DNA from: Escherichia coli
Lineage (GTDB): Bacteria; Pseudomonadota; Gammaproteobacteria; Enterobacterales; Enterobacteriaceae
Length of the DNA: 64,000 bases
Strand: one strand, 5' to 3'
Assembly: GCF_030013595.1 (NCBI RefSeq)
Contig: NZ_CP122768.1
Part shown: one piece after another, positions 36,011 through 48,298 of the stretch
How the letters are laid out: every line of letters starts with the position of its first letter
How positions within the stretch are numbered: position 1 is the first letter of the stretch
The notes under the pieces: generated by a model
The model's input: only the letters and a program-made list of their open reading frames with translations
Database searches by the model: none
Told to the model about the DNA's origin: nothing
Made by a program: the position numbers and the translations under genes

Positions 36011-36141
36011 TAACAGGCGGGGAGCGATTAAAAAAGAGGCGGGTTGATGACAAAGGTTACACCGTCTGACGTGCTACGCCTGTCAGGCCTATTCGACTCC
36101 TGCAATATATTGAATTTGCATAGTTTTGTGGGGCGAATAAG

Positions 36142-36167
36142 GCGTTCACGCCGCATCCGGCGTGAAC
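36142..36167. repeat. REP-like palindrome in the cho-nadE intergenic region
   Basis: CGTTCACGCCGCATCCGGCGTGAAC inverted repeat. Confidence 0.45.
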
Positions 36168-36206
36168 AAAGTACTCTTTTTCGCACAAACCAATATGTGC
36201 AAATTA

Positions 36207-37034
36207 TTACTTTTTCCAGAAATCATCGAAAACGGTAATTGGCGGACGGCGTTTATGTTCGGTTTTCAGATACCAGTTCTCTATTGTTCTGGCGACCTGT
36301 TCAGGTAGGTTTTTCCCTTCCAGATAGTCGTCAATATTGTCATAGGTCACGCCGAGTGCCACTTCATCTGGCAGAGAAGGGCGATCATCTTCCAGATCGG
36401 CCGTTGGGGCTTTCTTATAAAGGTGTTTCGGGCAACCTAATGCCGCCAGTAACTGTTTACCCTGGCGTTTGTTGAGACGATACAGCGGATTAATGTCCGT
36501 ACCGCCGTCACCATATTTAGTGAAGAATCCGGTAATGGCTTCTGCTGCATGATCGGTGCCCACCACGACACCGCTGGTCATACCCGCAATGCTATATTGT
36601 GCTTTCATCCGCTCACGCGCTTTTTCATTGCCACGGACAAAATCGCTCAGTTCAATGCCTGCTTCCCGCAATGCCTGCTCGCTGGCCAATACCGCGCCCT
36701 TGATATTAACGGTTAATACGCGATCCGGTTGAATAAAGGCAATGGCATCCTGGCAATCTTGTTCGTCGGCCTGAACACCATAGGGCAGGCGTACGGCAAT
36801 AAATTGCAGCGATTCGTTGCCGGTTTCCTGGCGCAGCTCATTAATCGCCATCTGGCACAGCTTTCCGGCAAGCGTGGAGTCCTGACCGCCGCTGATCCCG
36901 AGCACCAGTGATTTAATGAACGGATAAGTTTGCAGGTAGCTTTTCAGAAAATCGACACTACGACGAATTTCCTCTTCAGCATTAATCTGCGGTTTTGCGC
37001 CCAGCGCCTTTATTATTTGTTGTTGCAATGTCAT
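36207..37034 (-). CDS. nadE: NH3-dependent NAD+ synthetase
   Basis: 275-aa [20 protein letters not shown] with SGGQDS PP-loop motif. Confidence 0.95.
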
Positions 37035-37235
37035 TGAACCCCTCCAGACAGAAAAGACAAAACTTCCTTAAAGCTAACCCGTTGCTACTGAAACGACAAG
37101 CGACAGCGGGTTGAATGGTGGTTAAAACGTCATACAGGAATCCTCTGAAAGCGGAGCCGTTTCGTTCACGGGCTTGAAAAAGCGCCCAATGTATTCCAGG
37201 CTTATCTAACACGCTGATAAACAAGAGGACGGAAT

Positions 37236-37574
37236 ATGAACAAGAATATGGCAGGAATTCTGAGTGCAGCGGCGGTATTAACCATGCTGGCGGGTTGTAC
37301 GGCTTATGATCGTACCAAAGACCAGTTTGTACAGCCTGTGGTGAAAGACGTCAAAAAAGGCATGAGCCGGGCGCAGGTTGCACAAATTGCGGGTAAACCT
37401 TCGTCTGAAGTGAGCATGATCCATGCTCGTGGTACTTGCCAGACCTACATCCTGGGTCAACGTGATGGTAAAGCAGAAACCTACTTTGTCGCGTTAGATG
37501 ATACCGGACATGTCATCAACTCCGGTTATCAGACCTGTGCTGAATACGACACTGATCCACAGGCTGCGAAGTAA
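37236..37574 (+). CDS. osmE: osmotically inducible lipoprotein E
   Basis: 112-aa ORF with lipobox (LAGC). Confidence 0.9.
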
Positions 37575-37606: not shown

Positions 37607-37632
37607 AACCGGCCATTGCGCCGGTTTTTTTT
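37607..37632 (+). terminator. osmE rho-independent terminator
   Basis: AACCGGCcattgcGCCGGTT followed by TTTTTT. Confidence 0.6.
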
Positions 37633-37671
37633 GGCCTGAGTTCTTAATTATCTTCGCGAATTATTTGCCCG

Positions 37672-40044: not shown

Positions 40045-40887
40045 ATGATGCAGCCAGTGATTAACGCGCCGGAAATTGCCACTGCCCGAGAACAGCAGTT
40101 GTTTAATGGCAAAAATTTCCATGTGTTTATCTATAACAAAACTGAGAGTATCAGCGGACTGCATCAGCACGACTATTATGAATTTACTCTGGTATTAACC
40201 GGGCGTTATTTCCAGGAGATTAACGGTAAGCGCGTGTTACTGGAACGGGGCGATTTTGTTTTTATTCCGTTAGGTTCGCACCATCAAAGTTTTTATGAGT
40301 TTGGTGCCACGCGCATATTGAACGTTGGGATCAGTAAACGCTTTTTTGAGCAGCATTACCTGCCGTTGTTGCCTTATTGCTTTGTCGCTTCACAGGTATA
40401 CCGGACCAATAACGCTTTTCTCACCTATGTGGAAACAGTGATTTCTTCATTGAATTTCCGCGAAACAGGGCTGGAAGAGTTTGTTGAGATGGTTACTTTT
40501 TATGTCATTAACCGTTTACGTCATTACCGCGAAGAACAGGTGATTGATGATGTACCGCAGTGGCTGAAAAGTACGGTAGAAAAGATGCATGATAAAGAGC
40601 AGTTTAGTGAATCGGCGCTGGAGAATATGGTGACGTTGTCAGCCAAATCACAGGAATATTTGACGCGGGCGACTCAACGATATTATGGCAAAACGCCAAT
40701 GCAGATTATTAATGAAATCCGTATTAATTTTGCCAAAAAACAACTGGAAATGACCAACTATTCAGTGACGGATATTGCGTTTGAGGCCGGTTATAGTAGC
40801 CCGAGTTTGTTTATTAAAACGTTTAAGAAATTAACGTCCTTTACGCCTAAGAGCTATCGTAAGAAATTGACTGAATTTAATCAGTAA
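40045..40887 (+). CDS. chbR: AraC-family dual regulator of the chb operon
   Basis: 280-aa ORF with N-terminal cupin-like and C-terminal AraC HTH domains. Confidence 0.9.
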
Positions 40888-43160: not shown

Positions 43161-45422
43161 TTACGCCGGGATTTTGTCAATCTTAGGAATGCGTGACCAC
43201 ACGCGGTGTGCTGCCATCAGCGTTAACAGTTCATCCATAAAACTACCATCGGCGCTGTCAGCTTCCACAATCCCTTCTTCACCCTGGTCAGCGATCTTGA
43301 TTGTTGCTTTAAACTTGCGCGCGTCTCCTGCCAGCGCAATCGGTTTAAGGTGTTTGTAGGCTTCCATCAGGTAGTAGTTGGCATCGCCGTTGTCAGCGAT
43401 ATCCGCGATATTGCCGCAAGGGACAATAACCGCATCGACCGTCAGCGAAGGCGCTCCGGCAAAGGTAGCGGCTATAGGCAGCACCGTACCGTCATCCGCA
43501 GTCACTTCACCCATTCGGGAGTAGAGCAGTTTGGCATGAACGCCTTTGGCCTTCAGCGCCTTGAGAATGGTCAGAAGGTCTGCCGATCTCACTTCATCAT
43601 TAAGCAAAATCGCTACCACGCGACCTTTTACATCACCGTCAGGAATGGCGTACAGACTTAAGGATGGATCCTTTTTCAGACAGTTGACGTCCGGAGGCGG
43701 GGTGATATTCAGCTGGTCGTCCGTCAGCTCGATACCGAGATTTTTCGCCACCGCCTGGGCCAGAGTGAGATCAATATGCGCCAGCTGGTCAACAACGCGC
43801 TCACGAATATACGGACGAACTACTTTGCTTAACTCAAAACTGAAACCATCGACAATATGGCGCTGCTCGAATGGCGTCTGACTTAGCCAGAACAGACGCG
43901 GATGGGAATAATATTCGCCAAACGATGGGCTGCGCTCGCGAACTTTATTGCCTTCCACGCGCTCCTGGTATGATTCAAAACCGCCGCGTTTCGGCCCCGG
44001 CGGTGTTTCGCGCGGCCAGTTATCGTTGATCGAGTTCGGTTCATAATTCGCCGGGTTAGTGTCGATCCCCATACGATGCATGCCGTCACGCTGGAAATTA
44101 TGGTAAGGGCAGGTCGGGCGGTTAATCGGAATCTCATGGAAATTCGGCCCACCAAGACGACTGATTTGTGTATCGGTATAGGAGAACAAACGTCCCTGCA
44201 ACAGGGGATCGTTGGTGAAGTCCAGACCAGGAACAATATGACCTGGATGGAATGCTGCTTGTTCGTTTTCGGCAAAGAAGTTATCCGGATTGCGATTGAG
44301 CACCATTTTGCCGACACGCTGAACGGGCACCAGTTCTTCCGGGATAAGTTTAGTTGGATCAAGAAGGTCGAAGTCGAACTTAAATTCATCTTCCTCAGGA
44401 ATCAACTGGAAGCCCAGTTCGTATTCCGGAAAATCGCCTGCTTCAATCGCTTCCCACAACTCGCGGCGGTGGAAGTCCGGGTCACGTCCGGTTAGTTTTT
44501 GTGCTTCATCCCAAACGAGTGAGGCTTTACCTGCCAGTGGTTTCCAGTGGAAACGTACGAACGTTGCCTTCCCTTCGGCATTAATCAGGCGGAAGGTGTG
44601 AATACCGAAGCCTTCCATGGTGCGGTAACTGCGCGGGATCCCGCGATCCGACATCGCCCACATCACGTTGTGCAGAGTTTCAGGTTGCAGAGAAACATAA
44701 TCCCAGAAAGTATCGTGGGCGCTTTGCCCTTGTGGAATTGCCCAGTGTGGTTCTGGTTTTACCGCATGAACAAAATCAGGGAATTTATGCGCATCCTGGA
44801 TAAAGAAGATTGGCGTGTTATTGCCAACAAGGTCAAAAATACCCTCTTCGGTATAGAACTTGGTGGCAAAGCCACGGATATCACGCACGGTATCGGCAGA
44901 GCCAGCACCACCCTGAACGGTAGAGAACCTAACAAATACTGGGGTGATTTTGTTCGGATCTGAGAGGAAATCCGCTTTGGTGATATCGCTTAAGCTTTTA
45001 TATGGCTGGAAATAACCGTGAGCGGCTGATCCGCGTGCATGAACAATACGTTCCGGGATGCGCTCATGGTCAAAGTGAGTGATTTTCTCGCGCAGAATAA
45101 AATCTTCCAGCAGCGTTGGACCACGGTTACCGGCACGCAGTGAGTTTTGATCGTCGGCGATGCGTACGCCCTGATTAGTGGTCAGCGCATAATTTTCACT
45201 GCCTTTGCGTACGTCTTCCAGAGAATTAAGTTTTTCGTTACGCGTATCAGGGGCTTTCAGGCTACCTGGGGCGGTAGGTTGTGCACCTGGCGGTGTTGGT
45301 TCAGTCGCTGGACGATGAGATCCGTCCTCAGGTGCCAGTGAGTCCATCCCCGGTTTCGCTTCGCTGGAATCGTGTAGTGGTGACTGGTGCTGATGTGGGT
45401 TCTTTTCGTTATGTTGCGACAT
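43161..45422 (-). CDS. katE: catalase HPII
   Basis: 753-aa [32 protein letters not shown]; large-subunit monofunctional catalase. Confidence 0.95.
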
Positions 45423-45625
45423 TGAACTCGTCTCCTTAATTTATTACTGAAAGGGCCGCTGTTTTGGTCAAAAAACCCTCTAACTATAGACCATCAGCCA
45501 GATCCCGCTTCGGAGACTATTCTGGAAACGGTGTTATGAAATACACGCAAAGCGGGACGTATGGGGGCTAGATCGGCTAAACTACAGTTTTTCTGATTTT
45601 TAATATGCGTTTAGTGAAGCCAGTA

Positions 45626-45868
45626 ATGAAGAAACCGCTCCGCCAGCAAAACCGCCAGATTATTAGCTATGTCCCACGCACGGAACCCGCGCCGCCAGAA
45701 CATGCGATAAAGATGGATTCGTTTCGTGATGTCTGGATGCTACGTGGCAAATATGTTGCGTTTGTACTGATGGGAGAGTCATTTCTGCGCTCACCGGCGT
45801 TTACTGTGCCTGAATCCGCCCAGCGTTGGGCAAATCAGATCCGCCAGGAAGGGGAAGTGACTGAGTAA
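45626..45868 (+). CDS. cedA: cell division modulator CedA
   Basis: Start MKKPLRQQNRQIISYV at 45626 gives 80 aa. Confidence 0.85.
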   Translation: MKKPLRQQNRQIISYVPRTEPAPPEHAIKMDSFRDVWMLRGKYVAFVLMGESFLRSPAFTVPESAQRWANQIRQEGEVTE

Positions 45869-46028
45869 GGATTACGTACCTCCCGGTTCTGCCGGGAGTT
45901 ACATGGCCTGAAATTCTGTATTTCATTGCTACATTCATTCAAACCACCTGTAACAAAAAGCTGCCTTTGACGATCTATTGCTATAAATAAGTGAACTTTT
46001 TTCTTTAATTGTTTATTTATTTTAAAAT

Positions 46029-46037
46029 GGTTAAGTT
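46029..46037. repeat. 9-bp target-site duplication (left copy) GGTTAAGTT flanking IS10
   Basis: Identical 9-mer immediately outside both IS10 termini. Confidence 0.85.
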
Positions 46038-46083
46038 CTGATGAATCCCCTAATGATTTTGGTAAAAATCATTAAGTTAAGGT

Positions 46084-46152
46084 GGATACACATCTTGTCA
46101 TATGATCAAATGGTTTCGCGAAAAATCAATAATCAGACAACAAGATGTGCGA
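46084..46152 (-). ncRNA. IS10 RNA-OUT antisense RNA (approximate, placed from known IS10 architecture)
   Basis: Known IS10 organisation: pOUT antisense transcript covering the tnp start region; coordinates inferred, not measured. Confidence 0.4.
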
Positions 46153-47353
46153 ACTCGATATTTTACACGACTCTCTTTACCAATTCTGCCCCGAATTACA
46201 CTTAAAACGACTCAACAGCTTAACGTTGGCTTGCCACGCATTACTTGACTGTAAAACTCTCACTCTTACCGAACTTGGCCGTAACCTGCCAACCAAAGCG
46301 AGAACAAAACATAACATCAAACGAATCGACCGATTGTTAGGTAATCGTCACCTCCACAAAGAGCGACTCGCTGTATACCGTTGGCATGCTAGCTTTATCT
46401 GTTCGGGCAATACGATGCCCATTGTACTTGTTGACTGGTCTGATATTCGTGAGCAAAAACGACTTATGGTATTGCGAGCTTCAGTCGCACTACACGGTCG
46501 TTCTGTTACTCTTTATGAGAAAGCGTTCCCGCTTTCAGAGCAATGTTCAAAGAAAGCTCATGACCAATTTCTAGCCGACCTTGCGAGCATTCTACCGAGT
46601 AACACCACACCGCTCATTGTCAGTGATGCTGGCTTTAAAGTGCCATGGTATAAATCCGTTGAGAAGCTGGGTTGGTACTGGTTAAGTCGAGTAAGAGGAA
46701 AAGTACAATATGCAGACCTAGGAGCGGAAAACTGGAAACCTATCAGCAACTTACATGATATGTCATCTAGTCACTCAAAGACTTTAGGCTATAAGAGGCT
46801 GACTAAAAGCAATCCAATCTCATGCCAAATTCTATTGTATAAATCTCGCTCTAAAGGCCGAAAAAATCAGCGCTCGACACGGACTCATTGTCACCACCCG
46901 TCACCTAAAATCTACTCAGCGTCGGCAAAGGAGCCATGGGTTCTAGCAACTAACTTACCTGTTGAAATTCGAACACCCAAACAACTTGTTAATATCTATT
47001 CGAAGCGAATGCAGATTGAAGAAACCTTCCGAGACTTGAAAAGTCCTGCCTACGGACTAGGCCTACGCCATAGCCGAACGAGCAGCTCAGAGCGTTTTGA
47101 TATCATGCTGCTAATCGCCCTGATGCTTCAACTAACATGTTGGCTTGCGGGCGTTCATGCTCAGAAACAAGGTTGGGACAAGCACTTCCAGGCTAACACA
47201 GTCAGAAATCGAAACGTACTCTCAACAGTTCGCTTAGGCATGGAAGTTTTGCGGCATTCTGGCTACACAATAACAAGGGAAGACTTACTCGTGGCTGCAA
47301 CCCTACTAGCTCAAAATTTATTCACACATGGTTACGCTTTGGGGAAATTATGA
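46145..47353 (+). CDS. IS10 transposase
   Basis: Intact 402-aa ORF MCELDILHDSLYQFCPELHLKRLNSLTLACHALLDCKTLTLTELGRNLPTKARTKHNIKRIDRLLGN..., recognised as the IS10/Tn10 transposase. Confidence 0.9.
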   Translation: MCELDILHDSLYQFCPELHLKRLNSLTLACHALLDCKTLTLTELGRNLPTKARTKHNIKRIDRLLGNRHLHKERLAVYRWHASFICSGNTMPIVLVDWSDIREQKRLMVLRASVALHGRSVTLYEKAFPLSEQCSKKAHDQFLADLASILPSNTTPLIVSDAGFKVPWYKSVEKLGWYWLSRVRGKVQYADLGAENWKPISNLHDMSSSHSKTLGYKRLTKSNPISCQILLYKSRSKGRKNQRSTRTHCHHPSPKIYSASAKEPWVLATNLPVEIRTPKQLVNIYSKRMQIEETFRDLKSPAYGLGLRHSRTSSSERFDIMLLIALMLQLTCWLAGVHAQKQGWDKHFQANTVRNRNVLSTVRLGMEVLRHSGYTITREDLLVAATLLAQNLFTHGYALGKL

Positions 47354-47366
47354 GGGGATCTCTCAG

Positions 47367-47375
47367 GGTTAAGTT
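47367..47375. repeat. 9-bp target-site duplication (right copy) GGTTAAGTT
   Basis: Exact direct repeat of 46029-46037. Confidence 0.85.
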
Positions 47376-47494
47376 TTGCTAATCATGATGAGCTATTTTT
47401 GATAGTACATCCTGTGGCGTCGCTCTTAAACTTATATTGTAAATGACTTAGATTTAAATGAGATAATAATTTTGTTAACAATATGAGGCGGGAG

Positions 47495-48298
47495 ATGCTT
47501 TCTACAAACTTAATACAGAGTAATTATGGTGATTTAAATATTAAAAGCCTGGCTTTCGACTCTTTTAAAGAAAGGCTGCAGTCTACTATGACAGCACTCA
47601 CTTTCTTTATATCAACGGGTCAATGTGACTGCGATGAAATAGCAGAATCAAACTTTAATTATATGATTGCCTATATGTCTAACATTAACTATGATGCCTC
47701 AAAGCTAGGAGCGCCAGCACTTAGTTTTGATACATATCTGCAGGACAATGTTAAATATAGAGTAATAATTAATAATCTTTATGGTAGTGAAATTAGGATA
47801 AGAGGTATTAATGAGAATTTTGTTGGGATGGATTTTACCTGTGAATTCCGACCAGAAAAAATGACCAATTTGATCAATATAAAAAACAGGTTGGTTATTC
47901 ACTATTTAAGAACGATATACTATGAACAAAATTATATACATCCTGTTGGGAGCATTTTTGCTGCGATTCAAAAAAATGAGAGTCTCCTAAAGTTTCCTTC
48001 GGTAATATCAATGCTTAATGTCAATCTTCTTTTTAATCCACTGAATCTTCCGGGAATGGGAAGTGGTGTGCTTGAAGAGATTATGAGTATTTCAGATAGT
48101 TCACTTAGAAAACGTCTTGGGTATGAGGTTTTAAGCTTCTCGCTACAAGCACATTCATTGAGTCAGGAATGTATCGATAAGTTAGCCATTTTTTTCGCTG
48201 ACGATCTGTTTAAATATGAGTCAGTATGCATCGCCGCGATGGAACATTTAAAAAGTAAGGCAACGGCCCCTATACAAAACGGACCGTTGCCAGCATAA
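47495..48298 (+). CDS. ydjO: uncharacterised protein, AT-rich ORFan
   Basis: ORF 47483-48298; Met at 47495 gives 267 aa; no recognisable domain; low GC. Confidence 0.7.
   Translation: MLSTNLIQSNYGDLNIKSLAFDSFKERLQSTMTALTFFISTGQCDCDEIAESNFNYMIAYMSNINYDASKLGAPALSFDTYLQDNVKYRVIINNLYGSEIRIRGINENFVGMDFTCEFRPEKMTNLINIKNRLVIHYLRTIYYEQNYIHPVGSIFAAIQKNESLLKFPSVISMLNVNLLFNPLNLPGMGSGVLEEIMSISDSSLRKRLGYEVLSFSLQAHSLSQECIDKLAIFFADDLFKYESVCIAAMEHLKSKATAPIQNGPLPA

Follow-up and report, generated by a model that had tools for sequence, protein, structure and literature searches.

The closest described relatives of the element analyzed here are the two IS10 arms of the transposon Tn10 on plasmid R100 (NC_002134.1), which served as our reference: IS10-Right, at 43950-45278, and IS10-Left, at 36132-37460. 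A further comparison is offered by BM28, a heat-evolved derivative of K-12, in which the copies of the element were named IS10R by their authors (PMC10044804). In NCBI annotation the same element appears as ISVsa5, its protein being entered as 'IS4-like element ISVsa5 family transposase' (WP_001339197.1). ISVsa5 differs from IS10R in name only, and this accession is carried both by the R100 IS10R transposase, which matches the protein described below at 402/402 residues, and by the 100% identical copy of BM28.

The window, by which we mean the whole 64-kb stretch of Escherichia coli DNA that was analyzed, contains one complete IS10 on the plus strand at 46038-47366, a span of exactly 1329 bp. 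Its length equals that of IS10-Right of R100, with which it shares 1328/1329 bases and all 402/402 transposase residues, the sole base difference lying at nucleotide 203 and being synonymous. The two also have in common their ends, the antisense RNA-OUT, the Dam sites, and a 9-bp duplication; the difference is one of setting, as the window copy is a lone simple insertion sequence in a chromosome, whereas IS10-Right of R100 is an arm of Tn10. IS10-Left of R100 has the same architecture as the window copy but is more distant from it (98.8% identical, 1313/1329), with 16 base differences that include nucleotides 24, 25, 27, 47, 83, and 107 in the outside-end and regulatory region, and with four amino-acid differences in the transposase. 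The BM28 copy, in turn, is identical to the window copy at 1329/1329 bases, and many other chromosomal and plasmid copies of IS10 are likewise 100% identical to it. Judged by these base comparisons, the window copy is of the IS10-Right type and not of the IS10-Left type.

Dissection of the element bears out this assignment to IS10. The 23-bp terminal inverted repeat of the outside end occupies 46038-46060 (plus strand), and the IS10 outside end sequence, CTGATGAATCCCCTAATGATTTT, has its single exact match in the 64-kb window at this point, with 0 expected by chance. The inside end, CTGAGAGATCCCCTCATAATTTC, closes the element as its reverse complement at 47344-47366 (minus strand). The two ends agree at 17/23 terminal positions, and the window contains no further end of either type. 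Beside the outside-end repeat, at element nucleotides 30-42 (46067-46079, plus strand), is the IHF-like sequence AATCATTAAGTTA, one mismatch from WATCAANNNNTTR, which we take to be the IHF site of this end. GATC occurs twice in the whole element, once in the -10 region of pIN (nucleotides 67-70, 46104-46107) and once in the inside end (nucleotides 1320-1323, 47357-47360). The Dam site in the pIN region of IS10 ties transposase expression to hemimethylation. RNA-OUT is encoded on the minus strand at 46083-46152, where the Rfam model RF00240 matches over its full length (1-70) and scores 98.8 bits (gathering score, 41). The RNA covers the transposase ATG at 46145, and the pOUT start coincides with the 5' end of the RNA, at 46152, from which transcription runs toward cedA.

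The transposase gene itself (46145-47353, plus strand) encodes 402 amino acids, beginning at element nucleotide 108 and ending, with its stop, at nucleotide 1316, 13 bp short of the end of the element. Its product matches Pfam PF01609 (DDE_Tnp_1; E = 2.4e-24) and the IS4-family equivalog NCBIfam NF033591, the latter at 404 bits (cut-off, 152). The residues D97, D161, and E292 of the catalytic triad are present, together with Y285, R288, and K299; the numbering of the triad and of the signature Y-(2)-R-(3)-E-(6)-K follows the IS10 literature. Near-identity to IS10R, the characteristic ends, the 9-bp duplication, a DDE transposase, RNA-OUT, and both Dam sites were thus each found when the copy was examined as a member of IS10 within the IS4 family, and nothing observed contradicts the identification. 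All IS10-defining features that can be read from sequence are present in the window copy, among them the parts by which IS10 moves and those by which it holds itself in check. Given its identity to active IS10-Right, the element is presumably competent for transposition, with excision by way of hairpin intermediates followed by integration. A sequence-only reading of the same DNA had described a complete 1329-bp IS10 with imperfect ends of the IS10 type, an intact 402-aa transposase whose ATG lies 108 nt from the outside end, and Dam sites located in the pIN region and at the inside end, and it was right in all of these, with ends and length agreeing base for base.

The target site gives direct evidence of how the element arrived. 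Two copies of the 9-mer GGTTAAGTT bracket it, at 46029-46037 on the left and 47367-47375 on the right, and their identity extends over exactly 9 bp, with the 10th base breaking the match; agreement at 9/9 bases would arise by chance at one fixed pair of positions with a probability of ~4e-6. Deletion of the element and one repeat copy restores a 288-bp spacer between cedA and ydjO that is identical at 288/288 positions to that of strain HCP5S3_I2, the closest complete genome. The alignment to MG1655 suggested by the sequence-only reading likewise reveals an empty spacer of 288 bp, with six substitutions, no insertion sequence, and GGTTAAGTT unoccupied at the same place. Because the duplication is exact and the empty site is exactly reconstituted, this is a genuine, simple transposition event. 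The earlier claims of an exact 9-bp direct repeat at these positions, of a continuous AT-rich spacer upon excision, and of bona fide transposition rather than an artefact all hold up against the relative.

Whether the copy might instead belong to a composite Tn10, as an arm or a remnant, or be an IS10 put in the wrong place during assembly, deserves consideration, as Tn10 is the usual vehicle of IS10 and as assemblies often collapse or misplace this repetitive element. In Tn10, tetR and tetA(B) lie between two IS10 copies in inverted orientation, and the duplication sits at the outer ends of the pair. Against both possibilities, the 9-bp repeat brackets a single insertion sequence exactly, and its excision yields the spacer of the relative without a single mismatch. 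A second IS10 end, such as a composite Tn10 would supply, is absent from the 64-kb window, and tet genes are found neither in the window nor in the relative, which is collinear with it but for two insertion sequence differences. We therefore regard a Tn10 arm or an assembly error as highly improbable. With one outside end, one inside end, and a duplication around a single element, the window element is a simple insertion of one IS rather than a piece of Tn10.

The reading that we favor, and hold to be very probably correct, is a recent and ordinary cut-and-paste insertion of an intact IS10 of the Right type into the spacer between cedA and ydjO in a natural E. coli strain. A single intact element would have entered GGTTAAGTT within this AT-rich spacer (33% GC) by the usual non-replicative route, with staggered cleavage of the target across 9 bp followed by gap repair giving rise to the direct repeat. 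The site itself is an undistinguished one. Compared with the target consensus NGCTNAGCN, GGTTAAGTT agrees at 4/6 specified positions, each half-site having a single mismatch, in keeping with the partial match to the target preference that had been noted from the sequence. Its left half-site reads GTT where the consensus has GCT. As cited in PMC2744996, Bender and Kleckner reported that T at the position of the consensus C lowered the insertion frequency >1000-fold in another tested context. With only 4/6 positions matched and T for the consensus C in the left half-site, GGTTAAGTT is a non-preferred, sub-optimal target, compatible with an ordinary insertion outside a hotspot.

To place the event in time, we turn to the relatives of the strain. 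HCP5S3_I2, a pig-faeces isolate from the UK, is collinear with the window at 99.87-99.96% identity, with ~33 small differences over ~62.7 kb and only two structural ones: the window alone has the IS10, and the relative alone has an IS200/IS605 copy, which lies between osmE and chbB. Since the site is empty in this ~99.9% identical genome, the insertion is, by sequence comparison, recent, and it would postdate the split from relatives that differ by ~0.05%. The distribution of the junctions agrees with this. With queries that joined 250 bp of flank to 250 bp of the element, one for each junction, the insertion was found in 0/5426 complete E. coli genomes; the few matches covering the full query proved to be split ones, due to IS10 copies at other positions of the locus. 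Exact 40-mers across the junctions are also absent from the metagenome contigs searched and from GTDB species-representative genomes. The earlier proposal that the insertion is strain-specific is thereby upheld: the position is new, while the element itself was already known. That proposal had leaned on the absence of IS10 from MG1655, which is borne out for the cedA-ydjO locus, where MG1655 has no insertion sequence.

The same relatives bear on the suggestion, also made from the sequence, that the strain may descend from a laboratory lineage in which Tn10 was used. The K-12 derivatives BM28, ER2796, and ET12567 do have IS10 copies, which lends the idea some initial appeal. Yet the window is only 96.6-98.0% identical to MG1655 across alignable blocks, which rules out a K-12 origin of the strain, and stands at ~99.9% to pig-faeces isolates. 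Moreover, IS10 is common in natural E. coli, with sequence matches in 1967/5426 complete genomes (36%), a near-complete copy in 1174 of these, and matches in 3172 plasmid records, so that a laboratory history is not needed to account for its presence. An ORF of the espL1 type, found in both the window and the pig isolate, also speaks against a laboratory lineage. We accordingly set the suggestion aside as very unlikely, in favor of a natural strain that acquired a common element.

Comparison with HCP5S3_I2 brought out several other features of the window. The ORF of the espL1 type encodes 632 amino acids on the minus strand at 55628-57526, between yniD and thrS, and is collinear with a gene of the relative that is annotated as the type III secretion effector EspL1; it fits a natural, non-K-12 background. 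In the osmE-chbB spacer, at ~37626-37633, the window is without the ~0.7-kb insertion of an IS200/IS605-family tnpA element that the relative carries (L006, 38029-38732), a second insertion sequence polymorphism between two ~99.9% identical genomes. The yniA gene, on the minus strand (ORF 52045-52830), is frameshifted relative to HCP5S3_I2 and encodes 261 aa instead of 286 aa, owing to a run of six A residues at 52391-52396 where the relative has seven; it is either a pseudogene or the product of a homopolymer sequencing error. Conversely, the window has an extra base at 16374, in gdhA, and at 40110, in chbR, and these single-base indels leave both genes as 'frameshifted' pseudogenes in the annotation of the relative, where they are probably assembly errors. 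Two Rfam matches above their gathering scores, the ES036 (CssrF) small RNA at 36085-36127 (minus strand, 44.3 bits) and the Phe leader at 61343-61467 (plus strand, 74.4 bits), are expected chromosomal features.

What the insertion does to its neighbors is a separate question. Upstream lies cedA (45605-45868, plus strand; NF007510, 187 bits), whose stop is 169 bp before the element, and downstream lies ydjO (47495-48298, plus strand), a gene of 267 aa and 35% GC that has no family assignment. A gap of 128 bp separates the element from the annotated ydjO ATG (47495), or 116 bp if an in-frame ATG farther upstream (47483) is taken as the start, so the distances given earlier, 169 bp from the cedA stop and about 120 bp to the ydjO start, are sound. 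The transposase gene points in the same direction as both neighbors. Sequence able to form a hairpin on either strand follows cedA at 45879-45898, but neither strand has a T-run after it, and it is not among the calls of the terminator scan. The spacer as a whole is listed among H-NS-associated 'promoter islands' (PMC3661553), and the sole published promoter call for ydjO, with the hexamers ATGACT-16-AATAAT and an H-NS flag, comes from a genomic SELEX catalogue (PMC3946193).

That published site is intact in the window. ATGACT-16-AATAAT lies at 47443-47470 on the plus strand, 76 bp downstream of the element, where the promoter scan found it as the only sigma-70-like match in 45400-47600. The sequence-only reading had supposed that the insertion may displace the native promoter of ydjO; with the site 76 bp downstream of the element, the core promoter would have remained attached to its gene, and displacement probably did not occur. 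What has moved is the upstream 169 bp of AT-rich spacer (33% GC), now 1.3 kb distant from ydjO, and it is possible that the loss of this half-spacer affects the gene. The outward promoter of IS10, pOUT, reads from the outside end into adjacent DNA and activates adjacent genes (PMC2744996). Here it starts at 46152 on the minus strand and faces the 3' end of cedA, in antisense, and then katE, in sense, away from ydjO; transcription of this kind could possibly occur. As cedA, the transposase gene, and ydjO are all co-oriented, read-through into ydjO from cedA or from the weak transposase promoter, for which the sequence-only reading had allowed, is conceivable, though nothing supports it. With the coding sequences of cedA and ydjO intact and the ydjO core promoter just downstream of the element, the effect on the neighbors is most likely small.

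These regulatory possibilities raise the further one that the insertion was selected for changed expression of a neighbor, through relief of ydjO from H-NS or read-through into it, or through pOUT by way of an antisense transcript of cedA or an extra transcript of katE. In its favor are the H-NS association of the spacer and the H-NS flag of ydjO; activation of adjacent genes by pOUT is documented, and with a sub-optimal target, selection could favor recovery of an insertion there. Nevertheless, pOUT is directed away from ydjO and the core promoter of that gene is kept. Three further independent IS10 insertions, all in one shared orientation, fall within the same 1.1 kb.

Two of these interrupt ydjO at codon 175 with a copy of the IS10R type, in the K-12 derivative BM28 (L001, 3396-4724; duplication TGCTTAATA) and in Br_112_kylling, a Brazilian isolate (L002, 3396-4724; duplication TGCTTAATG). 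Although they occupy the same position, their duplications and flanks differ, and the two thus look independent on sequence grounds. The third, in 2017.06.05CC, is of the IS10-Left type and lies on the cedA stop codon (L003, 2581-3909; duplication GACTGAGTA). All three have the orientation of the window copy, each of their 9-bp duplications matches the consensus at 4/6 positions, and none of the three strains shares the junction of the window copy. Their consequences are disparate, two breaking ydjO and one striking the stop codon of cedA, so that they have no regulatory outcome in common. Their number, too, is unremarkable: from the 4436 chromosomal IS10 places in genomes of ~5 Mb, chance alone would place about one insertion in 1.1 kb, and three do not amount to a significant excess. 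Taken together, we consider it unlikely that the insertion was selected for an effect on neighboring expression, and we retain an ordinary transposition event as the explanation.

The same counts speak to a regional hotspot for IS10, which we rejected: three independent events in the collection do not significantly exceed the ~1 expected, and the copies do not constitute independent samples. A related reading, that the AT-rich, H-NS-associated 'promoter island' of the cedA-ydjO segment may be a regional warm spot, is one to which we give little credence. Its appeal lies in the tally of four independent IS10 insertions, the window copy included, at three positions in the segment and in one orientation, with the ydjO position hit in two unrelated backgrounds. 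If the warm spot were real, local DNA structure or nucleoid proteins would be steering IS10 beyond its 9-bp consensus, or, as an alternative cause, there would be recurrent selection on ydjO or cedA.

For the strain, the insertion is a clean polymorphism of recent date, potentially of use for marking the lineage, and the presence of a potentially active IS10R points to Tn10 or tet(B), or to more copies of IS10, elsewhere in its genome. Beyond the strain its significance is slight, as this is a textbook element in a new but unremarkable position that leaves cedA, ydjO, and the reported core promoter of ydjO intact. The wider point for IS10, and a weak one, is that several of its copies have landed independently in this 1.1-kb AT-rich segment.
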